Source: an uncultured delta proteobacterium (GTDB taxonomy: Bacteria > Myxococcota > UBA727 > VGSZ01). From it: DNA of 64,000 nt. The translations under genes were made by a program, and so were the position numbers. A model generated the notes under the pieces. It was given only the letters and a program-made list of their open reading frames with translations. It did not search any database and was not told the origin of the DNA. This document shows, piece after piece, positions 4,912 to 60,778 of the stretch. Numbering within the stretch: the stretch's first letter is position 1; every line of letters begins with the position of its first letter. The stretch is from positions 206,983 through 270,982 of the forward strand of contig CAVZJB010000003.1 in the NCBI GenBank assembly GCA_963775425.1. Reading direction: 5' to 3'.

Positions 4912-5155
4912 GCTACGCACGTGACCTTCGCGCTGCCACGAACGCGTGCCTCAATGGAACTTGTCGAGCATCCCGCCGAGATGGATCCGTGTGTTCTCGT
5001 GATGCATCCGGCGCCTGCTGCAACTTCGAGACCGCTGCCCGCCGACCGACGCCCCGTGACCAGCGATGGGCCGTCGCCCGGCGCCCGAAGCCCGTCGCCC
5101 GAGGCCGACGCCCGAAGGCCGCGCCCGCGCAAACCGATCTCCGTGAACCGACTCT

Positions 5156-24376: not shown

Positions 24377-25594
24377 ATGCGTACGACAGCCCTCGCTTCG
24401 CTCCTGTTCAGCGCGCTCGTCAGCGCGCTCGCGTTCGCCTGCGCACCCACGCACAGCGCCCCGCCCCCCGGGGAGGCGGGCACCGGGGGCGAAGGCGAAG
24501 GCGACGGCGGCGGGGAAGGCGGCGGTGAAGGCGGTGAAGGCGAAGGTGGCGGCGGCGGTGGCGGCGAAGGCGGTGGCGGCGAAGGCGAAGGCGAAGGCGG
24601 TGGCGGTGGCGGCGAAAGCGAAGGCGAAGGCGAAGGCGGCGGCGGCGAAGGCGAAGGCGAAGGCGGCGGTGGCGAAGGCGAAGGCGAAGGTGGCGAAGGC
24701 GAAGGCGAAGGCGGTGGCGGTGGCGGTGGCGAGGGCGACGGCGGCGCGTGCGCGCCGGGAGCCGTCGACGGCTGCACCCTGCGCGTCGACGGCGACTACG
24801 ACTGCACAATGACGTTCGACGGGCTCGATCGCACCTGGCTGATGCACGTCCCCCCGGGCGTCGGCGGGCGCGTGCCGCTCGTGTTCTCCTTCCACGGCCT
24901 GCGCACCACCGCGGCGCTCCAGCGCTACATCAGCGAGATGGACCCGGCCGCCGACGCGCACGGCTACGTCGTCGTCTACCCCGAGGGCACGGGCCCGTCC
25001 CTCGACGAGAGCTGGAACGCGGGCAACTGCTGTGAGTCCGCCGCGCAAAACGACGTCGACGACGTCGGCTTCACCCTCGCCATCCTCGACCGCCTGCGCG
25101 CGCCCTTGTGCGTCGACGCGCGCCGCGTCTACGCCGCCGGCCTCTCCAACGGCGGCCACATGGTCTACCGCCTCGCCTGCGAAGCGGCCGACACCTTCGC
25201 CGCCGTCGCCTCCGTCGCCGGCGTGGAGACCACGTTCCCGTGCACGCCGAGCCGGCCAATCTCGCTGTTGCACATCCACGGCGACGCCAATCCCGTCGTC
25301 AACTACACCTTCGGCATCGACGGCATCCACGGCGCCCATCGCTCCGTCAGCGACTTCGCGGGCTTCGACGGCTGCGGCGAGAGCACCTCGGTGGTCTACC
25401 AAAACGGCGTGGTCACCTGCACCACGCGCGCGGGCTGCGCCGGCGGCACCGACGTCGAGCTGTGCACCGTCGCGGGCGGCGGGCACCAGTGGCCCGGCGG
25501 CCACGACCTGCCCTCCACCTTCGGCGACAACACCACCGACCTCGACGCCACCGAGCACATCTCCAACTTCTTCCTCGCCCACGCCTTGCCCTGA
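24377..25594 (+). CDS. lipoprotein esterase / PHB-depolymerase-like alpha/beta hydrolase with (GE)n acidic linker
   Basis: MRTTALASLLFSALVSALAFAC has a lipobox. A ~100-aa G/E repeat linker (GEGEGDGGGEGG...) follows. The catalytic domain has GLSNGG (GxSxG nucleophile elbow) and LpqC/esterase_phb-like motifs (LVFSFHGL..., HIHGDANPVV). Confidence 0.75.
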   Translation: MRTTALASLLFSALVSALAFACAPTHSAPPPGEAGTGGEGEGDGGGEGGGEGGEGEGGGGGGGEGGGGEGEGEGGGGGGESEGEGEGGGGEGEGEGGGGEGEGEGGEGEGEGGGGGGGEGDGGACAPGAVDGCTLRVDGDYDCTMTFDGLDRTWLMHVPPGVGGRVPLVFSFHGLRTTAALQRYISEMDPAADAHGYVVVYPEGTGPSLDESWNAGNCCESAAQNDVDDVGFTLAILDRLRAPLCVDARRVYAAGLSNGGHMVYRLACEAADTFAAVASVAGVETTFPCTPSRPISLLHIHGDANPVVNYTFGIDGIHGAHRSVSDFAGFDGCGESTSVVYQNGVVTCTTRAGCAGGTDVELCTVAGGGHQWPGGHDLPSTFGDNTTDLDATEHISNFFLAHALP

Positions 25595-43624: not shown

Positions 43625-43900
43625 CGTCGGCGCGGGCTCTCCCCGGCGTAGGGCGCGGGCTTGCCCCGACGTAGGGCGCGGGCTTGCCCCGACGGAGGGC
43701 GCGCGCTTGCCCCGACGTAGGGCGCGGGCTTGCCCCGACGTAGGGCGCGGGCTTGCCCCGACGGAGGGCGCGGGCTTGCCCCGACGGAGGGCGCGGGCTT
43801 GCCCCGACGCAGGGCGCGGGCTTGCCCCGACGCAGGGCGCGGGCTTGCCCCGACGCAGGGCGCGGGCTTGCCCCGACGTAGGGCGCGGGCTTGTCCCGCG
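43625..43900. repeat. tandem array of ~12 x 23-bp REP-like units (GTAGGGCGCGGGCTTGCCCCGAC; variants GGAG/GCAG heads)
   Basis: Directly visible perfect 23-bp periodicity at 43648, 43671, 43694 ... 43878. Each unit carries the GGGC-TT-GCCC mini-palindrome. No spacers, so it is not CRISPR. Confidence 0.85.
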
Positions 43901-44031
43901 CCTCGGAGCCCCCGCGCGCGTCGGCGTCACCCGCCGTCGTACGGCGTGGGCTTGCCCCGCGCCGCCCTCGTGCCCTCGCGAGCTGCGGGCCGGTATCGTC
44001 GACAACGCTGGCGCGGCCTACAGTCCCGGCC

Positions 44032-44466
44032 ATGTTGACGAACCGCTCGGCCCCGCCCGTGACCGTCACCCCGGTCCTCGTCTATCCCGATGTCCGCGCG
44101 GCGGTGACGTTTCTCGCCACGGCCTTCGGCTTCGAGGAGCGCGTGCGCATAGGCGACGCACACCGCGCGCAGTTGCGGGTGGGCGAGGACGGCGCCGTCG
44201 TCGTCGCCGACGTCGGCCGCGATCGCGTCGCCCCGAGCGCCGGCGTGGTCACGCACGTCCTCAAGGTCCGGGTTCCCGACGTCGACGCCGCCTTCGCTCG
44301 CGCCCGCGACGCCGGCGCGCGCGTCGTCGAGGATCTCACCACGCACGCGTACGGCGAACGCTCCGGCATGCTCGAAGACCCCGCCGGCCACCGCTGGGAG
44401 CTCACGCAATCCGTGCGCGACGTCGCGCCCGAGGAGTGGGGCGGCGTCGCCGTCGGTCGGTGGTGA
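44032..44466 (+). CDS. VOC family protein (glyoxalase/bleomycin-resistance/PhnB-like)
   Basis: MLTNRSAPPVTVTPVLVYPDVRAAVTFLATAFGFEERVRIGD...VTHVLKVRVPDVDAAFARARDAGARVVEDLTTHAYGERSGMLEDPAGHRWEL is the typical PhnB/VOC pattern. Confidence 0.75.
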   Translation: MLTNRSAPPVTVTPVLVYPDVRAAVTFLATAFGFEERVRIGDAHRAQLRVGEDGAVVVADVGRDRVAPSAGVVTHVLKVRVPDVDAAFARARDAGARVVEDLTTHAYGERSGMLEDPAGHRWELTQSVRDVAPEEWGGVAVGRW

Positions 44467-44514
44467 ACGGCTCCGGGGTGGCCTCGCCGCGGATGCGGCG
44501 ATACACCGCGTCCG

Positions 44515-44587
44515 GGCCCGTAGCTCAGCGGTAGAGCAGTCGGCTCATAACCGATCGTGTCGCAGGTTCGAATCCTGCCGGGCCCAC
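44515..44587 (+). tRNA. tRNA-Met (anticodon CAT; elongator-type, could alternatively be tRNA-Ile2/lysidine)
   Basis: Cloverleaf: acceptor GGGCCCG/CGGGCCC, D-arm GCTC-AGCGGTA-GAGC, anticodon stem GTCGG/CCGAT with loop CTCATAA, T-arm GCAGG-TTCGAAT-CCTGC, discriminator A. No initiator features (G1:C72; no 3xGC in the anticodon stem). Confidence 0.85.
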
Positions 44588-44688
44588 AGTTCAAGCGCTC
44601 CTCCGCCGCGCGGCCGCTCCGGATAGGCCCAAGCACCGTCGGCGCGGGTGCGGATCGTCGTGCAGGGCGGTTCGAATCCTGCCGGGCG
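44566..44688 (+). repeat. attL-type direct repeat: 104-bp unit beginning with the tRNA-Met 3' end (GGTTCGAATCCTGCCGGGCCCACAG...), 1 full plus 1 partial copy
   Basis: GGTTCGAATCCTGCCGGGC occurs at 44566 (inside the tRNA) and again at 44670. The same 104-bp unit recurs 4.5x at 54184-54650. Confidence 0.8.
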
Positions 44689-44689
44689 C

Positions 44690-46223
44690 GCCAATCGTTG
44701 CCCTTCGTCATTTCCGCGAGGATGGCGAAGGGCTTTTTCATGTCGTAACGCACGGTTACGCCCTCGAGGCGTGGGTTCGAAAGCACCATTTCGAGCAGTT
44801 GGCGCTTCTCCGAGGGAGTGCGCTGGTTCCACAACGATCTCGCCTGCTTGGCCAGTTCGAAAATGCGATCCGCGGTGACGAGGTACTTGTCGTCGAGCTC
44901 CTCGCTCGCGGCGCTGAGCCGGTCGAGCGCCGCGTGCTTCTCGCTGAGCAGAATCTCACGCTGGCGCTGGTACGTGACGTCGTCGAGCTTCCCGTCGACA
45001 TACATCGCCACGATCTTGTCCTCGCGGGCTTGCACGTCGTCCACCGTCCGCTTGAGGACGGCGATCTCGCGGCGGCGCTCGGTGCGCACGACCTCGTGGG
45101 TCTCGCGGAGCACGCGCGAGATCTCGTCGGCGAGCGCGTGCGGCAGCTCGATGTTGGCGATCGCGACCTCGAATTGCGCGAGGAGCTGCGCCTCCGTCAC
45201 GTGGACGCGCTTGGCGTGAACCCGGTGGCCGTTCGCGCACCGGTAGTAGTCGTACCGCTTGCCGCCGGTCTTGATCTTCGGGTCGTAGGTGATGCGGCAA
45301 CCGCACTCGGCGCAGACCAGGAAGCCGGAGAGGGCGCCGGCCGCGCCGAGGGGCGAGCCGTACGCGCCGCGGGTGAAGGTCGCCTGGAGCCGCTCCCACT
45401 CGTTGGTGGTGAACACAGGTTCGTGCTTCCCGCGGTAGCGCTCGTCGCGCCACGTGAACCAGCCCGCGTAGAACTCGTGCTTGAGGATCGCCTCGACGTC
45501 GCCCGCGCGGAGTACGCGGTTCTTGCGGCCGAGCCCCGCCCAGAGCCCTTCGTTCACGATGGACTTGCCGACGCTCTCGAGCGATGCGCCGGCTACGCGC
45601 AGCTCGTACATGCGGCGGATGAGGGCGCGCCCCGCGGGCAACAGCTCGATGGTGCCGCCACGGTCTCGCACGACCCCATTCGCGCCGACGAGCTTGGCGT
45701 TGCGGTAGCCGATGGGCGGGCGCGTCGGGTACCAGCCGTCCTTCGCCTTCGCGTCCTGCGACTCCTTGGCGCGGCGCGAGAGCTGCCGCGAATAGGTCTT
45801 CGCGACGAGCGTATTCATCTCGGCCTTGAGCCAGTCGCCTTCGTCGCTGCCCGCGTGAAGCTGCCAGCGCTCATGCGCGACGTGCAACACGAGCTCGTCG
45901 CGGCGGATGAGATCTTCGAGCAGCTCGTAGTCGGTGAAGTTGCGGGTGGTGCGGTCCCAGACCCAAAAGACGAGGTGCCGCACCTTCTCCTTCTTCGCGC
46001 GCGCGAGCGCCGCGTGAAACATGACGCGGGCCTCGGACGACTTCGCGCTCTCCTCGAGCACGATGACGTCCACGAGGTTGAGGCCGTGCGCCTTCGCGTG
46101 CGCGGTGATCCCCTCGCGCTGCACGCCGGGGCTGTTGTTGTCGCCCTGCTTCTTCGAGGACACCCGCACGACGCCGATCGCGCGGTCCGACTTTCCGAGC
46201 CACCGAGCAGCATTCACCTTCAT
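44690..46223 (-). CDS. large serine recombinase (resolvase catalytic domain + recombinase domain + zinc ribbon). 3' boundary unresolved.
   Basis: MKVNAARWLGKSDRAIGVVRVSSKKQGDNNSPGVQ (catalytic Ser region). Central recombinase domain. CAECGCRITYDPKIKTGGKRYDYYRCANGH (Zn ribbon). The coiled-coil C-terminus ends about ...KPFAILAEMTKGND. The ORF has no stop until 44082 and runs through the att repeat, the tRNA and the VOC gene, so the true 3' end is likely near 44690 or was replaced on integration. Confidence 0.7.
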
Positions 46224-47048
46224 GGTCCACCTCGCGGAGAAAGATCAGATCATGACGGAGAGCGGACGTCACCGGTCGCGCTCACCGTGGCGTCCTCCTG
46301 CGCCCACCGATCGAGCAACTCGAAGACGTTGGCGATCGTTTGGATGTCGGCGCGGGTGAACCGGACGGCGGCCTCCGGGTTCGCGGGCGAGAACATGCGC
46401 AGGTTCCCGCTCGACGTCTCTTCCAGCAGCATGAGCACCTCCAGCAGACACGTCGGCGATCGAGGCGAGCGCGCTCGCCGCATCCTTTCGTGTCGCCGTC
46501 GCCGTCGCCCTGCACTTCGCGGGCGGCGGTGACGGCATATCACCGTGTTGCTTGAGCCTGAGCCCCCTCCGCGCGCCGTGCGGCACCTCGTTCACGAGAT
46601 CGATGGATCAGCCAGCGACCTCCCGCCGCCCGTCGCGCAGCGACACGCGAAGCGTGCGGCGAGCGCTGACGAGATCGCCGTTGCGAACCTCGACAGCGCG
46701 GCCGGCCCGTCGCGCCTCAGCGCGACACGCGGAGCGTGCCGGCAGACGAAACCCCTTGTTGGGGGTGAGTCTGGAGGTCGCTGGCGCCACGTCAGTACGT
46801 GTCAAATGCTTTGGATTCGGCGGGGTAGCTCACCGGAAACTGTCACATGTACCTCCCCATTGTCCTGACACCAATTGACACGCATTGACGGGGCGCCGGC
46901 GGCCGGCGCGCCGGGCGGCGTCAAGATGGGAGCGCCTCGATGCCAAGATGCCACGTTTGGGACGCTGGCGTCCCGGCGTGGACAGTTGTTCGTTCGACGC
47001 ACGCCTGTCGTCTTGCGCTGAGGCCACGCGCTCGACACGATCACTTCG

Positions 47049-48195
47049 ATGCAACCGGGCCTCCTCTTCGATAAGTCCGCCTTTCAGGCGCTCAACGAGG
47101 ATGAGCATCGGTCGGTGCAAACGCTCTTCAAGGTCGGCCTCCCGCCAGTGCTAGCGAGCGAGGTCATCGCCGACCTTGCGAAGTACCCGCACGACAAGAA
47201 CGGGGAGGCGAAGGTCGCGACCCTCGCGGCCAAGTTTGGAGGTTCCGGACCGCCGCTCGTAGTCGGCCACGTTACCGCCACGCTGCGCTCGCTACTGGGC
47301 GCTGAGCCACCGCGGCGCGGCGACCTTTGGTACGCAACCCCTCGTCGCGCGGTGAATGCTGACGGAGAGCCGGGCATCGTGGTCGACACCGCGCCGATCA
47401 ATCACGCCATCTTTCGGTGGCGCGATGGCGAGTTCATCGACGCGGAACGGGACTACGCGCGCCGGTGGCGCGAAATGCTCGGTGAGCTGCAGTCGGGAAC
47501 GTTTTCGCCGCGTGCTGAAGTCGCAACACGTCGTCTTCCCCAAAGCGAAGAACGCAGTGGACGCACTTCGCATCGCCGACGCTGAACTCGTCGATCCCGC
47601 TCTGCAGCCCGCATGGCTCGAGTGGCTCTTGGATTCGCTCGCGCCCACGCCCCAGGTTGCAGGCGCTGTGCGCCAGCGATGGGACGTTGCAGATTTACCC
47701 CTTGTCGCGTTCGCTCCGTTCGCCGCGTTCTGTGTCCGCACGATGCTGTTCTTCGAGATCCTCACGCGCGGAAAGCACATCGTCGATCGCGAGACGAACC
47801 TGATCGACCTTCGCTATCTCTACTACCTACCCATGTGCCGCGTATTCGTCTCAGACGACAAGATGCACCGCGCGATGGCGCCTCTGCTCGCCCCAGGCGA
47901 TCGCTTCATCCCGTTGTCCGTGTTCCGCGCCGACTTGAAGGCCCTCGTCGAGGTTGGTGGCGGAGAGCACTTCCTCTTTCTCGGAGACGCGCTCGACGCA
48001 CTCAAGAAGCACCACGCGACGACGCCGACGTCGGTCATCGGGAAGATTGAGACATCGTGGGGTTGGGATCCGAACCGCGAACTCACGTCCTCAATGCCGC
48101 GGGAAGAGGTCCAAGCAATCCTTGAGAGGAAGTTCCCGCAACTTTTCAGCAAGAACCGGCGAGACGAGGGAGACAGTGACGAGCAATCGAGGTGA
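47049..48195 (+). pseudogene. hypothetical island protein, apparent -1 frameshift near 47510 (ORF 47049-47585 continues in the frame of ORF 47356-48195)
   Basis: Protein-like sequence switches frame at ...WREMLGELQSG / ERFRRVLKSQHVVFPKAKNAV...; the tails of each frame beyond the junction are junk-like. No recognisable domain. Confidence 0.4.
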
Positions 48196-48395
48196 GGGAG
48201 CCTGGCGCCGAACGGCGATGTCGCGTCACCGGTCACGAGTCACCTGGCGATGCTCATAGATTGCTTGCAAGACCGGCCGGCTAGCCGCCCTCAAGTACCG
48301 CAACGTTCGCGAGTCGGAGCGCCGCGGCTCCGGGCGTCGCGACCTTTTCGTGTGTCGCAACTTGCTCGCCTGGACTAGAAAGGCAGCGCAAGCCG

Positions 48396-49478
48396 ATGCC
48401 TTCGATCTTCGCCCGGGCAACCGTCAAGCGCGTCACTCCCGGCGCGCTCATGAACGAGGAGGACGTCAAGGTCCACCTCGTTATGCCGCGGTTACAGGAA
48501 TGCGGCTTCACGCAGGAAGAGCTGCACCTCGAGGCGACGTTCACGCTCCGCGCCGGCCGCTACACCTTGAATGTCGGCGGCAAGGGCGCTCCCCGCGCGC
48601 ACCACGTGCGGGCCGACATCCTCGTCCTGCGGGCGGGCAAGCCGCTCATGATCGTGGAGGTAAAAGCCGACCACGTCGATCTGTCGGCGGACGACGATCG
48701 GGACCAAGCGGTGTCCTATGCACGGCTTCATGATCCGATGTGCCCGGTCGCAGCGTTGACAAACGGCAAGCGGTGGCGGTTTTTTGACACGGTCTCAAAG
48801 AAGGAGATTTCCGCCGATGATGTGAAGGCGTCGACAGCACTGACCATCACGCTCGAGGACGAGCTTCGGAGGGAAGCCCTCATACAATTTGTCGGTTACT
48901 CGAAGGAGAACCTCGCGGCTTTCTGCGCCGAGCAGGTTCGTACCGCTGTCGCACCGTATCTCGCCGGTCTCGATGGCACGCTGCCGCTGTTTATTCCGTC
49001 GCTCTACGTCCTGCCCGGAGCGATGCGTGACGCCTGGGCGAAGTTTGTCGAGGGGTCACAGCGGGGGTTGCTCGTCAGCGGAGGGAACGGGTCTGGGAAG
49101 TCGGCATGGATGGTTCATGCGTCGACGTCGCTGACCGGTCAGGGAAGACCTTGTCTCTTCTACCGCGCGCATCTCTTGAGCGACGGATTCATCGCCCGCC
49201 TCGCTTCTGACCTCGCCTGGGCCTTGAGTCCGAACCTCTCGAGCGATGCCGCCGGTCGCCGCTTCGCGAACACCCTGAGGGGCGCGCAGCTTGTTGTCTT
49301 CATCGACAGCGCTGACGAGGCGAGCGAGGAGCTCACGAGAGCTGCGCTGAACGAGCTCGTCGAGAGATTTCCGGCTAACGTGCGCTTCGTCGTTGCGTGC
49401 AAGTCGACGCGGGTCGCGCCGCTCGGTCGCGACCCCGATGGATTAGACGCGGCGTGGTTCCAAAGCCTGGGAGATTGA
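48396..49478 (+). CDS. HsdR_N-type PD-(D/E)xK nuclease domain fused to a P-loop NTPase (Walker A/B)
   Basis: N-terminus EEDVKVHLVMPRLQECGFTQEELHLE...RADILVLRAGKPLMIVEVKADHVDL matches the type I restriction enzyme R-protein N-terminal (Mrr-like) nuclease fold (D...EVK). C-terminal VSGGNGSGKS (Walker A) and LVVFIDSADE (Walker B). Confidence 0.65.
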   Translation: MPSIFARATVKRVTPGALMNEEDVKVHLVMPRLQECGFTQEELHLEATFTLRAGRYTLNVGGKGAPRAHHVRADILVLRAGKPLMIVEVKADHVDLSADDDRDQAVSYARLHDPMCPVAALTNGKRWRFFDTVSKKEISADDVKASTALTITLEDELRREALIQFVGYSKENLAAFCAEQVRTAVAPYLAGLDGTLPLFIPSLYVLPGAMRDAWAKFVEGSQRGLLVSGGNGSGKSAWMVHASTSLTGQGRPCLFYRAHLLSDGFIARLASDLAWALSPNLSSDAAGRRFANTLRGAQLVVFIDSADEASEELTRAALNELVERFPANVRFVVACKSTRVAPLGRDPDGLDAAWFQSLGD

Positions 49479-49484
49479 GAAGGC

Positions 49485-51424
49485 GTGGACCCGAGCCTCC
49501 TCGACGAGACGGAGTTTTGGACGCTCGTGCAGCGGCACCAACGTCACTTCGGGGTGTTTCCGCTGTTCAGCGGCCGGCTCCGAGCCGAAGCACGACGGCA
49601 GCCGAGCCTTCTGCGCCTCATCTTCGAGGTCTCCGCACAGAGCCGCAATGACTTGGCCGCTCACAACTCCCGTGAGTTCTTCAAACGATACGTCGACAAG
49701 CGCTTCGAAAGGTTCCAGCACAGCGCCGACGCGCTGCGACGTCTGACGGACCTCGCCATGAAGATGTTCGACGAGAACACGGAGATGGTCGACGCCCAAG
49801 ATGCTATGAAGACAGTGGATGAACCGACTCTCCGACGTGCGGCGGACGTCGGGCTGGTCGAGCAAGTCCACGGCCAAGACGGGCGCCCACAGGTGCGCTT
49901 CCGCGAGTCGCGAGTGCGGAACTACCTCGTCATCTCAGAGGGCCATCGCTGGCTCTCGAAGACGGCGGATGTGCTTGAGACCGATGAGGTCCTTCTTAAG
50001 ATCACGGGCGGCGTGCAGCTTGAAGCGATGGAGCTTCTGTACCTGCTTGCGGACGAGGCGCAGAAGGTCGTCTTCGACGGGGATGCACGCAAGAACGCGC
50101 GCAAGGCTCTCTCGATCTTCGATGGCGCTGTTCGCGCCGTCTGTCCCGATCTCGGTGATCGTTTTGTCCCACCCCTCGGAAAGCGCGCGTTCGTGGGCTA
50201 CATCGACGTGCGGCGTGGGGCGCTTTTCGCGGTCGGCTTCATTCCGCGGGAAGGCGACGACGTGTTCTTCTGGCCGCGGACCCGCGGAATCTTTGAGGAC
50301 CGAACCGCGATGTTTCTCGGCGCGCGCAAGTTCTCGTCAAGGGCAGATGGCTTCCTCGATGAGGCAAAGGCTGCACATTTCGCGTTCTGGGAGACGTTCA
50401 AGGCAGAGCTGCACGGAAGTGGTCGAAAACGGCCGGCTCGACGAGTCAAAGTGTGCGCCCATGCTCTCGGAGCTCGCGACGGTGCTTGCGGCCGCGCTCG
50501 AGCTCGTTGAGCCCGCGCAGCGCGGTTTCCCGACCGTCGCAAAGACCGATATTGGCGCTATTCGCGTCGCTCTCTGGCGGAAGCGCGCGTATGAGAACTA
50601 CTTGGCCGAACACATGCCGCGGGACGAGACCCGCAGCGGCAGCTCTGTCGTCGTCACACGCCATCTGACGCCTGATGTTCACAGCGCGGCTCTAGCGCAC
50701 GCTGAATCGCTACCACTTGACTTCAGCGAGCTGCCCCCCGCTGAGGATCGGACGACCGCGACAGCGATGGAGGACGAGCTGCAGAGCGACGCTCGCTCAC
50801 CTTGAAGCGCTCGGCGAAACGAGCATCGAGAGCATCTTGCCGGCGTCGGATCAGAACGGTGCTCACATCTGGGAGCTTTGGAAGGAGCCGACGTTCAAAG
50901 CGGCCGCGGTACGGTTGACGCAGCTGCGCATTGAGTGCGTGGAGAATATCGTTCATGCGAGCTTCTCTCCCGACATCGCCAAGCGCATCCTCGGTGCCAC
51001 GACGACGGCCCTTTGCAGGCAGGACTATCGTGAAGGAACAGTTGAAGAGCTGCGTGTAACAACAAGCGCTGCGCTTCCCCGCGTAGTGGCGTTCGACGAG
51101 CGCCAAGAGGTCAAGCTGGCTCCCGACGGACGGACCGGAACCTTCCGGGGCGTGGAGATTCGCGACGTCGAATATTCATCAGCGACCTTTGCATTCGTTG
51201 CGAACGCGCGGAGCGCGTTTCTTCCGCAATCCTGGCGCTTCAAGCGTGAGCTCTGCCCGCTTCGAGCAGCGGTGTACCGCTTCATCGTCGACCGCTTGCC
51301 GTCCGCGCTCGCGCCGATCGGCAAGTCGCTTGGCGCTCCACCAACAAAGCGCTTGCGACTGACGTTGACGGGGCGACCGATTCCGCAGGATGTTGATGAT
51401 GCCGATGACGACGAAGAAACGTAG
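49485..51424 (+). pseudogene. large hypothetical island ORF, probably one ~640-aa gene broken by two frameshifts (segments 49485-50510, ~50461-50805, 50717-51424). May be the continuation of the upstream NTPase.
   Basis: GTG 49485 lies 6 nt after the upstream TGA. Protein-like text passes from frame 3 to frame 1 near 50430 (…FWETFKAEL / TEVVENGRLDES…) and to frame 2 near 50790 (…MEDELQS / ATLAHLEALGETS…). No recognisable domains. Confidence 0.35.
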
Positions 51425-52100
51425 CCGCGTTATCGAGGAAGTTCTGCTTCAGATCGCTGCATCGCGAGAAACCGAGGCGCCGGGGCCTCGCTCCTGCGTC
51501 CGTAGCCGCACTGCAACAGATTGCGGGGGAGGAGCGGGCCGGCTCAGTCCCCGTAGCCATCGCTTCCCGCCGGCTCAGTGCAGCAATCGCGTCATCTGTC
51601 TCGAGGTCCTCCTTCGAGAGATCAGATGTCGCCTTCGTGTTGGTGAGACGCGCCTTCAGGAACTTCACCAGATAGGTTTCGCCCGCGACCGCGTCGACTT
51701 TGGCGCGCTGGGCCACCTCAACGTTGCTGAAGTCCTGCTTTCCTTCGCGAAACAGCTCCATGACTGCGATGTAGACCCGCATGCCCTTGTTTGGCTGCTT
51801 CAGACCCTTCGAAGCCTTCGCGCGGTTGCACGCCATGCAAAGGACTTGCAGGTTCTCGAGGGCGTGGTTCTTGGCGTTCCCATCAACATGGTCAAAAGTG
51901 ATGCGTCGGTGCGAGCCGCACTTGCTACAGCGGAAGTCAGCATCGACAACGAGTTTCCAGAGTTCCTTTGTCGTCGGCGCGGACTTTCCGTAGGTTTCGC
52001 TCTTGAGCCAAGATCCCCGAACCGCGCCTGGCTGCGGAGGGCCGAACGCAGACAGTAGCGCCGCGAGCACGTCGTCTTCATTGAGCTCAAGCAGCTTCAT
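51282..52100 (-). CDS. HNH endonuclease
   Basis: CSKCGSHRRITFDHVDGNAKNHALENLQVLCMACN is the canonical HNH motif with a Zn-binding CxxC...CxxC. Start chosen at MKLLELNEDDV, because the upstream part of the ORF overlaps the rayT region. The 3' end overlaps the convergent ORF ending 51424. Confidence 0.7.
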   Translation of the reverse strand: MKLLELNEDDVLAALLSAFGPPQPGAVRGSWLKSETYGKSAPTTKELWKLVVDADFRCSKCGSHRRITFDHVDGNAKNHALENLQVLCMACNRAKASKGLKQPNKGMRVYIAVMELFREGKQDFSNVEVAQRAKVDAVAGETYLVKFLKARLTNTKATSDLSKEDLETDDAIAALSRREAMATGTEPARSSPAICCSAATDAGARPRRLGFSRCSDLKQNFLDNAATFLRRHRHHQHPAESVAPSTSVASALLVERQATCRSARARTASGRR

Positions 52101-52420
52101 GAATTCGAGTGACTCGTTCCACGGTGTCCTCGCTTTCTTCGGCCGCGACCGATGACGATGCTCTACGTTGGGTATCACGCAGGCGACGACGTCGCACTCA
52201 GCTCGCGACGGATCGCGGCACGCAGTTCGAAAAACCTCAAGCCGGGCGCGTTCGTGTTCTTCTGCGCGCGCAAAGCGCTTGGGGAGAAACGCCGTTTCTC
52301 CCCCGTCGCGGGCGGAGCCCGACGACGGCTCCCCCTCTTCCCCCGTCGCTGTGGCTCCTGCCTCCCTCCGGTCGGCCTCGTTCAGGGGCGGAGGCTCGTT
52401 CGAGCTTCGCCGTCGCGACC

Positions 52421-53078
52421 CTGGTCTGAGGGGGGCAGGCGTCCCGCCTGTCACGGGCGTCCCATGCGGATCAGGCGAGATCTCGCGCAAGAAGATCGAG
52501 CTCGGTCGGATGTTCATTGTGGACACAGACGCGCGCCGCCCAACCCTACATCGACGACGGCTCCCTCACTTCGTCCCGCCGCAGACCGAGCGCGGACAGA
52601 CTTACACTTCGTCACATGGCGCGTGCGCCGAGGCGTGGCACATCTCAGTCCTGACGAACGAGGCCGCGTCCGCGCGGCCATCAATCATTGCGATGCCATG
52701 CGCTACGAAGTCCACGCAGCCGTCGTCATGGACGATCACGTGCACGTGCTGTTGACGCTACTCGCTGACCACACGCTGAGCCGCGTGCTCCACACCTGGA
52801 AGTCGTTCACGGCGCACGAGCTTCAGAAGCTCGGCCGTCGCGGGAGCGTTTGGCAGGATGAGTCCTTCGACCGCACGATCTTCAGCGCGGCGGAGCCTCG
52901 AGCAGAAGGCAAGGTACATCGCGGCGAATCCGACGAAACGATGGCCCACCTTGTCCGGCTATCTGTGGGTGCAGTGTGTGGTCATGTTCACCAACGATCC
53001 GTGACAGGCGGGACGCCTGCCCCCCTCAGACGAACGATCAGTGACACGCGGGACGCGTGGCCCCCCTCAGACGAGAGC
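52421..53078 (+). mobile_element. REPtron-like unit: REP-associated tyrosine (Y1, IS200/IS605-like) transposase flanked by inverted hairpin repeats
   Basis: Left CTGGTCTGAGGGGGGCAGGCGTCCCGCCTGTCACGG (52421-52462) is the reverse complement of right CCGTGACAGGCGGGACGCCTGCCCCCCTCAGACG (52999-53036), with a second partial right copy at 53041-53078. Each contains the CAGGCG-TCC-CGCCTG hairpin. Confidence 0.6.
52464..53004 (+). pseudogene. rayT: REP-associated tyrosine transposase RayT (TnpA_REP), frameshifted near 52900
   Basis: DLHFVTWRV...HAAVVMDDHVHVLLT is the HuH motif. The conserved C-terminal ...ARYIAANPTKRWPTLSGYLW (YIxxNP motif) lies in the +1 frame ending at TGA 53002-53004. Confidence 0.55.
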
Positions 53079-53102
53079 TTCCGGCGTCATCAGGCGCAGC
53101 TC

Positions 53103-53280
53103 GGTTCGAAAATCCTCCATCCGGGCGCGCGTTTCGAGCCCATTCGCGACGTCGGCTACGTCGACGACCCGTAGGGCGGGGGCTCGTCCCCCGCCTTTTC
53201 CGTCGGCGGGCGCGCGTGGGGATACGGGGGACAAGCCCCCGCCCTACGCACCGCGGTTCGCAAATCGTCACACCGGGCGC
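53103..53280. repeat. 178-bp BIME-like repeat copy 1 (two inverted GTAG-headed REP hairpins GTAGGGCGGGGGCTCGTCCCCCGCC)
   Basis: Near-identical to 53992-54170. Begins with tRNA-T-loop-like GGTTCGAAAA. Contains GGCGGGGG-CTCGT-CCCCCGCC hairpins in inverted orientation. Confidence 0.75.
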
Positions 53281-53376
53281 GCTCTCCGATTTCGCCAACG
53301 ACGTCGAGGGCTTGGCCGACCCACGTGTCGACGCTTTCGAACTGAAGCCCGACGCGCAGCTTGCTAAGCTGATGGC

Positions 53377-53622
53377 GTGGCGAACGTAGAGCTTCTGAAG
53401 CGCATCAGCGTCGACCCTGCCGTCTGCGGTGGCCGGCCTTGTATCCGGGGGCACCGCATCTGGGTGTCGCTGGTGCTCGACTTCCTCGCCGACGGCGAGT
53501 CCGTCGACCAGATCGTCGCGAACTATCCCGGCATCGAGGCTGCGGACGTCCTCGCGTGCATCGCGTACGGCGCCGAGATGAGCCGGCTGCGCGAGGTCCC
53601 GCCGCGCCCCGCAGCAGGATGA
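53377..53622 (+). CDS. DUF433 domain protein (antitoxin-like)
   Basis: MANVELLKRISVDPAVCGGRPCIRGHRIWVSLVLDFLADGESVDQIVANYPGIEAADVLACIAYGAE is the DUF433 signature. ATGA overlap with the downstream DUF5615 gene. Confidence 0.75.
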   Translation: MANVELLKRISVDPAVCGGRPCIRGHRIWVSLVLDFLADGESVDQIVANYPGIEAADVLACIAYGAEMSRLREVPPRPAAG

Positions 53623-53984
53623 AGATCAAGCTCGACGAGAACCTCGGGCGACGTGGAGGGGCGGTCTTCCGCGTTGCGGGTCACGACGTCGACAGCGTCG
53701 TCGACGAAGGTCTCGCGAGCGCCGCCGACGATGCGGTGCGCGCGGCTGCGACGAGGGCGGAGCGCGTTCTCGTCACGCTCGACCTCGACTTCGCCAACCC
53801 GCTCCGGCATCCGCCGGCCGGGACGCCGGGGATCGCCGTGCTGCGGCTGCCGGAACCGCTTACGCCGTCCCTCATCGACGGCGCTGTCGTCGTGCTGCTC
53901 GGCGAGCTCGGCCGTGAACCGATCGATGGCCGACTCTGGATCGTCGAGGTGGATCGCATCCGCATCTACGATCCCGAGAGCTGA
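53619..53984 (+). CDS. DUF5615 (PIN-like) domain protein, putative toxin partner of DUF433
   Basis: MKIKLDENLG...VLVTLDLDFANPLRHPP...IAVLRLPEP is the DUF5615 pattern. A conserved two-gene DUF433/DUF5615 arrangement. Confidence 0.7.
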   Translation: MKIKLDENLGRRGGAVFRVAGHDVDSVVDEGLASAADDAVRAAATRAERVLVTLDLDFANPLRHPPAGTPGIAVLRLPEPLTPSLIDGAVVVLLGELGREPIDGRLWIVEVDRIRIYDPES

Positions 53985-53991
53985 AGGACAG

Positions 53992-54170
53992 CGGTTCGAA
54001 AAGCGTCAAGCCGGGCGCGCGTTTCGAGCCATTCGCGACGTCGGCTACGTCGACGACCCGTAGGGCGGGGGCTCGTCCCCCGCCTTTTCCGTCGGCGGGC
54101 GCGCGTGGGGATGCGGGGGACAAGCCCCCGCCCTACGCACCGCGGTTCGCAAATCGTCACACCGGGCGCA
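53992..54170. repeat. 178-bp BIME-like repeat copy 2
   Basis: Same sequence as 53103-53280 with a few substitutions (GGGGATGCGGGGGACAAGCCCCCGCCCTACG). Confidence 0.75.
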
Positions 54171-54183
54171 CAGCTCAAGCGGC

Positions 54184-54650
54184 GGTTCGAATCCTGCCGG
54201 GCCCACAGCTCAAGCGCTCCTCGGCCGCGCGCCCGCTCCGGATAGGCCCAAGCACCGTCGGCGCGGGTGCGGATCGTCGTGCAGGGCGGTTCGAATCCTG
54301 CCGGGCCCACAGTTCAAGCGCTCCTTCGCCGCGCGCCCGCTCCGGATAGGCCCAAGCACCGTCGGCGCGGGTGCGGATCGTCGTGCAGGGCGGTTCGAAT
54401 CCTGCCGGGCCCACAGTTCAAGCGCTCCTTCGCCGCGCGCCCGCTCCGGATAGGCCCAAGCACCGTCGGCGCGGGTGCGGATTGTCGTGCAGGGCGGTTC
54501 GAATCCTGCCGGGCCCACAGTTCAAGCGCTCCTTCGCCGCGCGCCCGCTCCGGATAGGCCCAAGCACCGTCGGCGCGGGTGCGGATTGTCGTGCAGGGCG
54601 GTTCGAATCCTGTCGGGCCCACAGTTCAAGCGCTCCTCCGCCGCACGCCA
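54184..54650 (+). repeat. attR-type tandem array: 4 full plus 1 partial copies of the 104-bp tRNA-3'-end-containing unit
   Basis: GGTTCGAATCCTG(C/T)CGGGCCCACAG recurs at 54184, 54288, 54392, 54496, 54600 (exact 104-bp spacing). The last copy diverges after ~50 bp. Confidence 0.85.
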
Positions 54651-54992: not shown

Positions 54993-55735
54993 ATGCCCGA
55001 GATTCCCATCGCCGAGCAGTTGGTCCTGCTGGCCGAGCTCGCGAACGTCGACGCCAAGCACCGCGCCATCAGCGACAAGCTCGAGATGCTCCCCGCCGCC
55101 GCCAAGAAGGCGGACGCCGCCGTCGCCGCGCTCAAGAAGCAGGCGGACGACGCCGACGCGCGCAAAGACGCGGCGGACAGAGCGAAGAAGCAGGTCGAGG
55201 GCGAGATCCAGGACGAGAAGCTCAAGATCAAGAGGTGGGAGGCGCGCGCGCACGAGATTCGCGGCGAGCGCGAGCACGCGGCGCTCCTGTCCGAGATCAA
55301 CACCGCCAAGCGCGTCATCCACCGCCTCGAGGACACGCAGCTCGAGCACATGGAGGTCATCGAGGCGCAGACCGGCGCCGCCACGCAGGCCATGGCCAAG
55401 CTCGAGACGGCGTCCGCCGAGGCCAAGGAGGAGTGGCAGAAGGTCGAAGGCGACCTCGCCACCCTGCGCGGCGAGGGCGACGTCCTCGACGCCGCGCGCA
55501 AGGCGCTCCTCGAGAAGCTCCCCGCGCCCCTCGTCAAGCGCTACGACACCATCGCCGCCAAGCGACACGGCGTCGGCGTCAGCGTCATCTCGGGCGAGGT
55601 CTGCAGCATGTGCAAGCGCACGCTGCCGCCGCAGCTCTGCATCCAGGTCCGCAAGGGAGCCGTCCTCGAGCAGTGCCCGTCGTGCTCGCGGCTCCTCGTC
55701 CACGAAGAGATGATGAAGGCGCAGGAGCCCGCGTG

Positions 55736-55736
<1 letters not shown>
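54993..55736 (+). CDS. COG1579-type coiled-coil protein with C-terminal C4 zinc ribbon
   Basis: [34 protein letters not shown]... is a long coiled coil, then [11 protein letters not shown]...CPSCSRLL (CxxC...CxxC). Confidence 0.7.
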
Positions 55737-59305: not shown

Positions 59306-60778
59306 ATGTGTCGGATGGTCATGACCCCTGTCCTCGTTGCCAGCCTCGCCGTGGCTGTCGCTGCATTCACCGCTTGCCCCGGCGAAGGCGAAGGCGAAGG
59401 TGAGGGCGAGGGCGAAGGCGAAGGCGAGGGCGACACCCAGTGCGGCGCGCGCGACCTCCCCTGCCACCCGGACGGCACCCCCAACTCGCAGTCCGACTGC
59501 TGCGACGCCACCGACGTCTGCGTGCCGCTCGACGGCAACGCCACCGTCGGCGCCTGCCGCCAGAAGTGCGGCGACCTCACCATCCAGAACGGCCAGGTCG
59601 CGAACGCCACCAAGGACCCCAGCGTCACCTGCACGGGGACGCGCACCTGCCAGACCGTCACCACCACCCCGGCGCTCGACATCGTCGCCGAGGCGTGCAT
59701 CGAGCCGGCTGACGGCATCGACGGCCTCTGCCACGACCTCTTCGACGTCGAGCTCCAGGACGCGGCGTGCCCCGACGGCCTCGACTGCGAGATCACGGCC
59801 ACCGACGCCAACGGCGACCCGTCGTCGTTGAACTGCAAGCAGCCGTGCGACCCCTTCGACGACACCAGCGTCGCCGTCTGCACGGACCAGGGCCTCGAGT
59901 GCCTCCAGGCGCCGCTGCAGTTCGCGAACATCCAGGACGACGGCAACGGCGGCCAGGTCCGCTGCGACGACGGCGCCACGCCCGACGGCAACGAGCTCGC
60001 GGCCTGCCAGGCCGGCGGCAACGCCGCGGACTGCCCGTGTGACACGGCCAACGGCTTCACCTGCGCGCAGTTCGGCCTCACCGGCGGCGGCAGCGGCTTC
60101 TTCTGCAACAAGGCCACCACCAACTGCGCCACCAACGTCCCGGCCACCACCCAGGCCGTCCTCGACGCGGATCCGGCGCACGCGATCAATGACCCGAACT
60201 TCCTCTGCAACGGCGTCGACGCCAGCCGCTACTGCGACCCGTCGATGTTCGACGGCGTGCCGGCCGAGAACGCGGGCAGCGACATCTGCATCTCCATCAG
60301 CCGCACCAGCAACGACGGCGTCTGCTTCGCGTTCTGCGGGTCGCCCGACGTCGACGACAACAACAACGGCACCATCGAGGACACCGAGAAGGGCCAGACC
60401 TTCCAGTGCGCCGACGGCTTCACCTGCGAGCCGAAGTTCGGTGTCAGCATCGGCATCTGGGTCGACATCCTCGACGCCCAGGGCAACCAGCAGACCTGCG
60501 CCTGCGACGGCGACGCCCAGTTCTGCGACGGCGGCACCCAGTGCGGCGCCAGCTCGCCGACCTTCTGCGTGAACAACCAGGGCTTCCACTGCGAGGCCCC
60601 CTTCAGCAGCTGCGAGCCCAACGCCGGCGAAGGCGAGGGCGAAGGCGAAGGCGAAGGCGAAGGCGAAGGCGAAGGCGAAGGCGAAGGCGAAGGCGAAGGC
60701 GAAGGCGAAGGCGAAGGTGAGGGCGAAGGCGAAGGCGAAGGCGAGGGCGAAGGCGAGGGCGAGGGCGAGGGCGAGTAG
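59306..60778 (+). CDS. cysteine-rich secreted lipoprotein with (GE)n repeats at both termini
   Basis: MCRMVMTPVLVASLAVAVAAFTAC has a lipobox, then (GE)10. About 60 Cys in a ~400-aa core. A C-terminal (GE)~27 tail, encoded by (GGCGAA)n. Confidence 0.7.
   Translation: MCRMVMTPVLVASLAVAVAAFTACPGEGEGEGEGEGEGEGEGDTQCGARDLPCHPDGTPNSQSDCCDATDVCVPLDGNATVGACRQKCGDLTIQNGQVANATKDPSVTCTGTRTCQTVTTTPALDIVAEACIEPADGIDGLCHDLFDVELQDAACPDGLDCEITATDANGDPSSLNCKQPCDPFDDTSVAVCTDQGLECLQAPLQFANIQDDGNGGQVRCDDGATPDGNELAACQAGGNAADCPCDTANGFTCAQFGLTGGGSGFFCNKATTNCATNVPATTQAVLDADPAHAINDPNFLCNGVDASRYCDPSMFDGVPAENAGSDICISISRTSNDGVCFAFCGSPDVDDNNNGTIEDTEKGQTFQCADGFTCEPKFGVSIGIWVDILDAQGNQQTCACDGDAQFCDGGTQCGASSPTFCVNNQGFHCEAPFSSCEPNAGEGEGEGEGEGEGEGEGEGEGEGEGEGEGEGEGEGEGEGEGEGEGEGEGE

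Follow-up and report, generated by a model that had tools for sequence, protein, structure and literature searches.

Analysis of a 64,000-nt stretch of DNA from an uncultured delta proteobacterium (contig CAVZJB010000003.1, positions 206,983 to 270,982; this whole stretch is referred to as the window) revealed a 9,480-bp segment, 44690-54169, that is very probably a small integrative island inserted by its own large serine recombinase (LSR). The island is positioned downstream of the only tRNA gene of the window, tRNA-Met(CAT) (69.7 bits with the Rfam tRNA model), and copies of a 104-bp repeat starting with the last 22 nt of this tRNA lie on both sides of it. Mapping of the junctions suggests that this repeat array is the target of the island and not its footprint, and that the array predates the insertion. 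The island is of a known general kind; its target class and the arrangement of recombinase gene and attachment (att) site are unusual and poorly documented, and a tRNA-tail array is an unusual landing site.

Island junctions and the probable target copy

The junctions were located by comparison with about 25 homologous LSR loci (numbered L001 and so on). The features that define the two ends of the island are as follows.

44514-44587, plus strand: intact tRNA-Met(CAT) gene, not split by the island (ARAGORN, Rfam); in relatives L011 and L013, this tRNA also comes after rpoD
44565-44668, plus strand: first 104-bp unit, consisting of the tRNA-Met tail (last 22-23 nt), a trailer of 27 nt, and an interior of 55 nt; identity to one right-hand unit, 98.1%
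44669-44689, plus strand: second-unit core, which forms the attL B arm, with CCGGGCGC at 44682-44689 and the putative crossover GC at 44688-44689 (mapped against L004, L010, and L045)
54144-54169, plus strand: attR P arm (GGTTCGCAAATCGTCACACCGGGCGC), where the island ends on the right, with CCGGGCGC at 54162-54169 and the putative crossover GC at 54168-54169 (same arm in L004, L010, and L016)
54170-54183, plus strand: B' remnant ACAGCTCAAGCGGC, the trailer start of the copy hit, which is cut to ~35 bp; it has the CAGCTC variant in common with unit R1
54184-54649, plus strand: tandem array of four full 104-bp units and a final 49-nt part running into the unique flank (Tandem Repeats Finder [TRF], alignment, and blastn)

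The two junctions share only the 8-bp block CCGGGCGC, and the right one is located 15 bp outside, i.e., to the left of, the array. In attL, the B arm has tRNA-like T-loop spacing, and the P arm of attR continues directly into a unit-type trailer. The P arm follows the consensus GGTTCG(A/C)AAATC(C/G)TC(A/G)CACCGGGCGC in the window, L004, L010, and L016, and the P' arm GCCAATCGTTGCCCTTCGTCAT forms the LSR 3' end in all close relatives. Locus L004 contains a complete 5.8-kb element in a tRNA-Arg(ACG) gene, which is bounded by the 13-bp repeat TTGGCGCGCCCGG and carries GGTTCGAAAATCCTCGCACCGGGCGC at its far end. The block shared by attP and attB is short in every case (8 bp in the window, 13 bp in L004, and 12 bp in L010). 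The island does not lie in the tRNA gene but in a repeat copy 104 bp downstream of it, and the tRNA tail copies to its right are uninterrupted target copies, not a displaced fragment.

A sequence-only reading of this DNA had taken the 104-bp repeats for the att footprint of the island, duplicated on integration and amplified by cycles of integration and excision or by accretion at a hotspot. The repeats hold the tRNA 3' end and lie on both sides of the island, and this family of elements does seem to undergo accretion, as the internal att-like sites described below suggest. This explanation is nevertheless most improbable. The junctions mapped with L004, L010, L016, and L045 fall in the 8-bp block, and both P and P' arm sequences are absent from the units. 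Exchange by serine recombinases is conservative, with no sequence duplicated (PMC3783163), so it cannot have produced a 104-bp duplication. An array of the 104-bp type is absent from all 24 other loci of the LSR clade, which leaves amplification by repeated integration and excision without support. The borders of the island and the meaning of the repeats are thereby corrected; tools that use tRNA-fragment repeats as ends would misplace the island.

Joining of the host-side halves (the left part of attL and the right part of attR) yielded GGTTCGAATCCTGCCGGGCGCACAGCTCAAGCG, i.e., a unit core with its trailer and a single C-to-G change. The copy hit reads CCGGGCGC, while the tRNA-Met gene and every other array copy read CCGGGCCC, with CC at the crossover. 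Serine integrases require matching central dinucleotides (PMC3783163), which suggests that the variant copy was the only usable landing site; a single crossover base may thus decide which array copy gets used. The element brings with it an acceptor end of the tRNA-Arg type, CGGGCGC-G-CCA, which would mispair with the 5' strand GGGCCCG of tRNA-Met, so insertion into the tRNA-Met gene itself would probably do damage. Tails of tRNAs that have been duplicated or displaced can serve as harmless secondary landing sites.

The position of strand exchange was narrowed by comparison with L045, an element located in a tRNA-Arg(TCG) gene. Its integration module is ~99% identical to window positions 44690-46760, and its attL reads CCGGGTGC. 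The T in this sequence matches the 5' acceptor strand GCACCCG of the L045 tRNA; host sequence would therefore extend to position 6 of the 8-bp block. In attR of the window, the discriminator A of tRNA-Met follows CCGGGCGC as position 9. Taken together, the two junctions leave only GC (positions 7 and 8), and the crossover is predicted at or beside this dinucleotide, a call which presumes that the sister elements of the window and L045 have the same attP.

The spacing of the T-loop motif was compared between the two kinds of site. The hexamer TTCGAA is located at -17 to -12 in tRNA-type sites versus -22 to -17 in P arms, i.e., 5 bp farther from the crossover. In the serine-integrase model for A118-type enzymes, the motif of the zinc-ribbon domain is likewise shifted by 5 bp between attP and attB (Rutherford et al. 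2013, PMC3783163). This shift is seen in the left half-sites only. The putative attP contains CAAATCGTCACACCGGGCGCGCCAATCGTTGCCC and the putative attB contains GGTTCGAATCCTGCCGGGCGCACAGCTCAAGCGG; the predicted attP junction is ...GCGGTTCGCAAATCGTCACACCGGGCGCGCCAATCGTTGCCCTTCG..., and the predicted repaired attB is ...CAGGGCGGTTCGAATCCTGCCGGGCGCACAGCTCAAGCGGCGGTTCG.... Thus, attP, attB, the 5-bp shift, and the crossover are predicted precisely enough for bench testing.

According to the proposed mechanism, the host site would be one copy of the 104-bp unit downstream of tRNA-Met and not the gene. Before insertion, the order would have been tRNA, unit, 35-bp truncated unit, four units, and the final 49 nt. 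The enzyme would read the T-loop TTCGAA 12 to 17 nt from the crossover in the host site and a second TTCGAA, 5 bp more distant, in the P arm of the element, whose attP would overlap the last codons of the recombinase gene, and would exchange strands at or beside the GC of CCGGGCGC. The insertion would split the array, leaving 1.2 copies on the left and a 35-bp stump with 4.5 copies on the right, and keep the tRNA intact. It would also remove the usual stop codon of the LSR gene and add ~200 codons to it.

The flanks of the island were compared with those of related genomes. On the left, Pfam identified dnaG, rpoD, and a glyoxalase-family gene followed by tRNA-Met; on the right, a CT398/COG1579-like zinc-ribbon gene (54993-55736, plus strand) is the first native gene, identical (100%) to P0051 from a 726-kb contig, and is followed by glyA and nrdR. 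The order rpoD...tRNA-Met...COG1579-glyA-nrdR is kept in relatives. In one relative, whose COG1579 protein is 72% identical, tRNA-Met is followed after 133 nt by COG1579-glyA-nrdR, with no island and no array; in a second, other genes lie between the tRNA and COG1579. The GC content falls from ~0.72-0.79 in the flanks to 0.60-0.66 between ~46000 and 53000. This GC dip and the flanking synteny are signs that the island is foreign. Core genes resuming immediately outside, a serine recombinase at the tRNA-proximal end, and cargo of lower GC content between the sites had all been noticed in the sequence-only reading and were borne out.

The serine recombinase and its tRNA-targeting clade

Gene frames were selected by third-position GC (GC3), and the open reading frames (ORFs) were scanned with Pfam, NCBIfam, PADLOC, and PHROGs. 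The recombinase gene is annotated as follows.

44082-46223, minus strand: LSR ORF as it stands, 713 aa (Pfam); the conserved 515-aa protein ends near 44679 (...WRARQDSN)

The LSR protein contains the Resolvase (PF00239; 2.6e-15), Recombinase (PF07508; 8.2e-10), and zinc-ribbon Zn_ribbon_recom (PF13408; 1e-09) domains and matches a PHROG integrase (2e-61). Residues R20, S22, D90, R91, and R94 are invariant across its homologues and are spaced like R8, S10, D81, R82, and R85 of Bxb1 (PMC12884075). The protein thus combines a catalytic domain holding the serine and the conserved arginine and aspartate residues with C-terminal Recombinase and zinc-ribbon domains, as serine integrases do. Identity to the phage integrases in the collection did not exceed 28%, and in the Protein Data Bank only the C-terminal domain of the A118 integrase was matched (E = 2e-6).

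A total of 50 homologues, 24-93% identical, were found. Alignment of 18 full-length homologues (47-93% identical, 511-573 aa) revealed that all but two contain ...KKPFAILAEMTKGNDWRAR-x-DSN, after which they diverge. WRAR at the C terminus corresponds to the antisense of CCGGGCGCGCCA, the 3' strand of the tRNA acceptor with CCA, and the following DSN corresponds to the antisense of GGTTCGAATC, the T-loop. The LSR ORF of the window lacks a stop codon where its homologues end and continues to 44082, a tail of ~200 codons that covers the second core copy and, in antisense, the unit, the tRNA, and the glyoxalase gene. In many of the closest LSR relatives (P0001, P0003, P0007, P0009, P0011, and P0129), the tails depart from the tRNA-antisense reading directly after DSN, which points to insertion not beside whole tRNAs but, as in the window, beside tRNA fragments bounded at the T-loop.

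The 3' end of a tRNA gene on the opposite strand overlaps the LSR 3' end in 21 of the 24 other loci, mostly in tRNA-Arg, at 27-99% LSR identity to the window. A genome scan with the LSR alignment, restricted to one genome per species, yielded 11 loci (27-86% identical) from Myxococcota-like "Deltaproteobacteria," Polyangiaceae, Bdellovibrionota, Pseudomonadota, and Thermotogae metagenome-assembled genomes; an opposite-strand tRNA was located at the LSR 3' end in 10 of them (Arg in seven, Gln in two, and Glu in one). The same was observed in nine of the ten testable metagenome loci (Arg in seven, Asp, and Ile). In L004, the overlap is with tRNA-Arg(ACG), again on the opposite strand, and amounts to 44 nt. 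Exceptions are L001, L010/L017, and L043, which adjoin tRNA 3' fragments, and three homologues on viral contigs (35% identical) lack a tRNA at the 3' end of their LSR gene. Intact tRNAs were called in L004, L016, L018-L027, and L045, and the acceptor stem of the L045 tRNA pairs; the relatives therefore restore the tRNA on insertion in the manner of Islander-type islands. Both the clade-wide tRNA overlap and the +5 spacing are direct observations of this analysis. Judged from these alignments, the LSR belongs to an uncharacterized clade that naturally targets tRNA genes at their 3' ends, mostly those of tRNA-Arg. An integrase reading the T-loop and acceptor end of tRNA-Arg would find natural landing sites in very many bacteria.

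In L001, which contains the closest relative of the LSR, a ~690-bp segment downstream of the recombinase gene (5040-5763) lies between two tRNA-like 3' fragments (5040-5068 and 5733-5763), and no whole tRNA is present within 10 kb of it.

Serine recombinases at tRNA genes have been reported as rare, as the sequence-only reading had also remarked: AICEs (integrative and conjugative elements of actinomycetes) of Mycobacterium use tRNA-Leu, and phiRSM, with a small serine recombinase, uses tRNA-Ser (PMC3218068). In a survey, 14 of 297 serine-integrase (S-Int) islands were located at t(m)RNA genes, for which experimental proof is still required (PMC7192596). The LSR of the window resembles them in having a tRNA gene as attB and differs from that of phiRSM in size class. 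No att mapping, overlap with int, or tRNA-Arg preference turned up for those serine recombinases in the literature consulted. The loci analyzed here provide base-level comparative evidence that a whole LSR clade uses tRNA 3' ends as attB.

Comparison with other known systems revealed partial likenesses. Phage-type LSRs (A118/LI, phiC31, and Bxb1) have the same set of Resolvase, Recombinase, and zinc-ribbon domains, short att sites, and an outer motif shifted by 5 bp (PMC3783163). In contrast to them, the window LSR targets a tRNA 3' end and not a protein gene, its attP lies inside the 3' end of the integrase gene, and its putative crossover dinucleotide is palindromic. The archaeal integrases of the SSV type also have the att site inside the int gene, which is broken on integration (PMC5861418); unlike the window LSR, of which only the C-terminal tail changes, these tyrosine recombinases of archaeal viruses have their gene split in two. 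In Islander-type tRNA islands, some of which form tandem island arrays, the integrase gene is likewise positioned at the tRNA end, and the past of the locus is recorded in tRNA 3' fragments (PMC4383910). These islands are, however, defined for tyrosine integrases and have one fragment per island, made by integration, whereas the fragments in the window are 104-bp tandem target units with no islands separating them. In the placing of attP inside the integrase gene, the nearest parallels are the SSV type and the myxophage Mx8, the latter also with a myxobacterial host range. The attB sites of Mx8 are located in tRNA-Asp genes. Its attP lies within the int coding sequence, so that integration gives int a new 3' end (PMC6070905, PMC4383910), but the Mx8 integrase is a tyrosine recombinase of unrelated family and chemistry.

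It is unlikely that the island is an immobile relic whose integrase was disabled by the ~200-codon tail together with a poor B' half-site, so that its junctions are purely historical. The 713-aa ORF does exceed the 511-573 aa of the homologues, B' has no recognizable motif, and the excised attP form was not found among the viral contigs, the metagenome contigs, and the fetched loci. On the other hand, the LSR keeps an intact reading frame and every conserved catalytic position, CCGGGCGC is retained in both attL and attR, and the ~99%-identical integration module is present in another genome at a different tRNA, implying recent movement. These data suggest that the island is mobile at present.

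Besides the missing excised form, several observations weigh against insertion of a serine integrase element into one array copy as described here. The GC crossover is palindromic, and the serine integrases studied take their orientation from the central dinucleotide (PMC3783163); either this clade is unusual, or the elements of the window and L045 do not have one attP in common, as was assumed. No clear motif is seen in the B' half, and the dyad symmetry of the putative att sites is weak (10-12 of 24 positions), for which reason it was rejected as a means to fix the att center. An array without the island was not seen among the relatives. The sequence-only reading had proposed comparison with an empty site, in which tRNA-Met is directly followed by COG1579. 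Such an arrangement exists, but it comes from a distant relative: scanning of genome contigs with the COG1579 protein found no close relative in which to look for an empty site, exact matching of glyA and P0051 gave no record, and the next COG1579 homologues are 72-74% identical. Finally, the tRNA-likeness of the unit interior is statistically marginal and escapes the Rfam tRNA model, and the number of 104-bp copies could be wrong if the assembly was built from short reads.

Origin of the 104-bp array

Analysis with TRF revealed a 104-bp period in the right-hand array (54181-54649; 4.5 copies, 98% matches, 0% indels, score 882). The unit consists of the last 22 nt of tRNA-Met, the 27-nt trailer, and the 55-nt interior, and the last partial copy comprises exactly the tRNA tail and the trailer (49 nt). 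The 19-nt core GGTTCGAATCCTGCCGGGC occurs seven times in the 64 kb, exclusively at 44565, 44669, 54184, 54288, 54392, 54496, and 54600; 0.08 copies were expected from shuffles, and none of 100 shuffles reached seven. A 41-nt piece of the interior is present in five copies, only at the same two sites. The unit was not found in the rest of the window, and a 22-nt interior piece had no match in the metagenome contigs. TRF and the core search thus agree with the sequence-only reading that the unit occurs 1.2 times at the tRNA and 4.5 times on the right; alignment of the units, which that reading had suggested, gave the 98.1% identity of the left unit (44566-44669 in its register) to a right-hand unit, and within the window the repeat is not a dispersed one. 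Given its 98% matches, the right array is near-perfect and not, as that reading had put it, perfect.

That the array or its copy number is an assembly artifact is hardly credible. Short reads assemble 104-bp tandem repeats poorly, but the units carry distinct substitutions in an ordered pattern, the repeat is present at two separate places that are joined consistently via the mapped junctions, and the contig is 726 kb long.

The array units are not tRNAs themselves; this possibility was rejected because no part of the array is matched by the Rfam tRNA model, even with E <= 10 allowed. The 5' 52 nt of tRNA-Met and the 55-nt interior can be aligned colinearly (34 of 5,000 shuffles anchored and 115-155 of 5,000 local), in blocks corresponding to the acceptor strand, D-stem, D-loop, anticodon stem, and variable region. 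This alignment weakly favors tandem duplication of the whole tRNA-Met gene with its trailer, followed by decay of the 5' parts, and in this register the array comprises a whole number of units. Such a duplication is the origin that we tentatively favor, at slightly less than even odds.

A somewhat doubtful alternative, which differs from the favored account in the origin of the array only, is that the array is the scar of an older unrelated element, e.g., a tyrosine-integrase island with its crossover in the T-loop, the remnant of which was amplified by unequal recombination. The 49 nt of tRNA tail and trailer would have been displaced, the element deleted to 55 bp, and the 49-nt repeats recombined unequally. 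The abrupt change at the T-loop from perfect identity to near-noise fits a displaced-fragment origin better than duplication: tRNA identity begins sharply at this point and extends 49 nt into the trailer, and the last copy is exactly these 49 nt. Att sites in the T-stem region are common (1,836 of 3,919 Islander islands; PMC4383910). In addition, L043 adjoins a longer tRNA-Arg 3' fragment reaching the anticodon loop, and L001 and L010 adjoin fragments bounded near the T-loop. However, neither an integrase remnant nor any other element sequence is recognizable in the 55 nt, whose colinearity with the 5' part of the tRNA is a better fit to whole-gene duplication, and extra steps are required for amplification to at least six copies.

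It is also conceivable, but quite improbable, that the clade represents general "tRNA-end" serine integrases, with the near-universal T-loop TTCGAA as the motif of the zinc-ribbon domain and a palindromic GC crossover, and that the array was produced noncanonically, by recombinase exchange between att-like copies, or was selected as a decoy, being kept as a landing pad that spares the essential tRNA.

Other resemblances of the unit were examined and rejected. Similarity of the unit tail to the native flank after the array was not significant (1,848 of 2,000 shuffles), nor was that of the unit interior to the host-side flanks of L001, L010, and L043. A peptide resemblance to P0129 (L049) proved to reside in a repetitive extragenic palindrome (REP)-like repeat and not in the 104-bp unit.

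Cargo, internal att-like sites, and neighboring features

The remaining features of the island are listed below.

46250-46432, minus strand: conserved 60-aa ORF just upstream of the LSR gene, 61-92% identical in L001, L004, and L010
46433-46900, no strand: conserved noncoding part of the integration module; DNA homology to L001, L004, L027, and L045 ends at ~46890-46908
48396-49478, plus strand: cargo protein with an HSDR_N-type nuclease N terminus and an AAA/STAND-like NTPase part (Pfam; PADLOC REase_I, N terminus only; GC3 frames)
49485-50510, plus strand: cargo, 341-aa ORF of no named family (GC3 frames)
51282-52526, minus strand: cargo, 414-aa HNH endonuclease-domain protein (Pfam HNH; PHROG HNH families)
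52224-52249, plus strand: internal attP-type half-site a, AGTTCGAAAAACCTCAAGCCGGGCGC (repeat family and P-arm search)
52617-53174, plus strand: Y1 transposase gene resembling REP-associated tyrosine transposases (RAYTs), start uncertain (Pfam Y1_Tnp, 28.6-28.8 bits; cutoff, 23)
53103-53280, plus strand: block 1, a REP hairpin pair (53170-53248) between P-type sites b (53103-53128) and c (53255-53280)
53377-53984, plus strand: toxin-antitoxin-like pair of DUF433 (53377-53622) and DUF5615 (53619-53984) (Pfam)
53993-54143, plus strand: block 2, in which P-type site d (53993-54018) precedes a REP hairpin pair (54059-54137)

No phage structural or replication genes, relaxase, coupling protein, or type IV secretion system genes were found among the island ORFs with Pfam, PHROGs, and NCBIfam (three ORFs have no assigned family). 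The island is therefore neither a recognizable prophage nor an integrative and conjugative element (ICE) or integrative and mobilizable element. The nuclease-NTPase protein, the adjoining 341-aa ORF, and the HNH protein may form an undescribed defense module. Assignment to a recognized defense system was rejected, as PADLOC gave the nuclease N terminus and weak HNH matches but no system. The 60-aa ORF had no Pfam, PHROG, or NCBIfam match and is a candidate regulator or directionality factor. Several TGTCA/TGACA motifs (e.g., GTCAATGCGTGTCAATTGGTGTCAGGACA) are located at 46600-46900, upstream of this minus-strand ORF, and may be operator sites.

Five P-type half-sites are present in the window in direct orientation, starting at 52224, 53103, 53255, 53993, and 54144, with no further match in the window. 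Apart from the last one, which meets the tRNA-Met-type trailer, each is followed by G and a differing trailer. They enclose the RAYT module and the DUF433/DUF5615 module, and a 141-nt block is duplicated at 53140-53280 and 54029-54169 with 99% identity. In L018, four P-type sites (185, 1059, 1214, and 1953) are present, with a homologous DUF433/DUF5615 cassette between them; their spacings are 874/155/739, compared with 879/152/738/151 in the window. The internal sites look like fossil attR junctions inside a composite element and provide some support for tandem accretion. That part of the sequence-only reading thus survives, although accretion would not have proceeded via the 104-bp repeats.

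In streptococci, ICEs and cis-mobilizable elements flanked by att sites accrete and are mobilized by tyrosine recombinases. The window island resembles them in that internal att-like sites enclose modules of a composite element, and it differs from them in its recombinase family. A single mechanism for all five P-type sites was sought and not found. Joining of attP to attR or attL is not known from canonical serine integrases, whose chemistry does not account for the way in which the internal sites were joined.

The DUF433 and DUF5615 genes (PF04255, 1.1e-24; PF18480, 5.8e-17) are adjacent and overlap by 4 nt. Their domains and arrangement are consistent with a type II toxin-antitoxin-like two-gene module, in agreement with the toxin-antitoxin pair of the sequence-only reading. 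That reading had also proposed a REPtron (a REP/RAYT unit). The Y1_Tnp match above the cutoff and the REP hairpins agree with this proposal, but the NCBIfam REP_Tyr_transpos match (47.8 bits; cutoff, 80) stays below its cutoff. A perfect 33-nt inverted repeat (52424-52456/52999-53031) surrounds the gene, and GTAG-type hairpin pairs of the REP kind lie at 53170-53248 and 54059-54137, with kin hairpins outside the island at 43646-43919. The gene with its repeats looks like a self-contained REP/RAYT or IS200-like unit. At its 3' side, a 40-nt sequence is repeated twice in tandem (52993-53074).

The interval separating rpoD from the glyoxalase gene holds 11.7 copies of a 23-bp unit, GGCGCGGGCTTGCCCCGACGTAG, with 95% identity (43629-43898). 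The unit resembles the GTAG-type REP hairpins of the island, so this REP family is present outside the island too. A REP-like repeat (GCCGAGCGGAGCGAGGCAGGAGCCGC...GGCGGGCTACGCCCGCC...) is located at 52263-52403, just after site a, and at 11552-11695 in L010, 1063-1158 in L018, and 1749-2081 in L049; it recurs beside LSR junctions in other genomes as well as inside the island.

An inverted repeat of ~160 nt (43423-43583/54704-54860, 76-79% identical) encloses the whole interval from rpoD to COG1579, including the 23-bp array, the glyoxalase gene, tRNA-Met, the island, and the 104-bp array; no further copies were found within the window. An Rfam match to "Plastid-ycf2 5UTR" antisense to tRNA-Met (44514-44587, minus strand; 34.8 bits against a gathering score of 65.7) is almost certainly spurious. 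Far from the island, arrays of the hexamer GGCGAA with up to 43.7 copies (24484-24746, 59381-59433, and 60626-60774) are probably low-complexity coding repeats.

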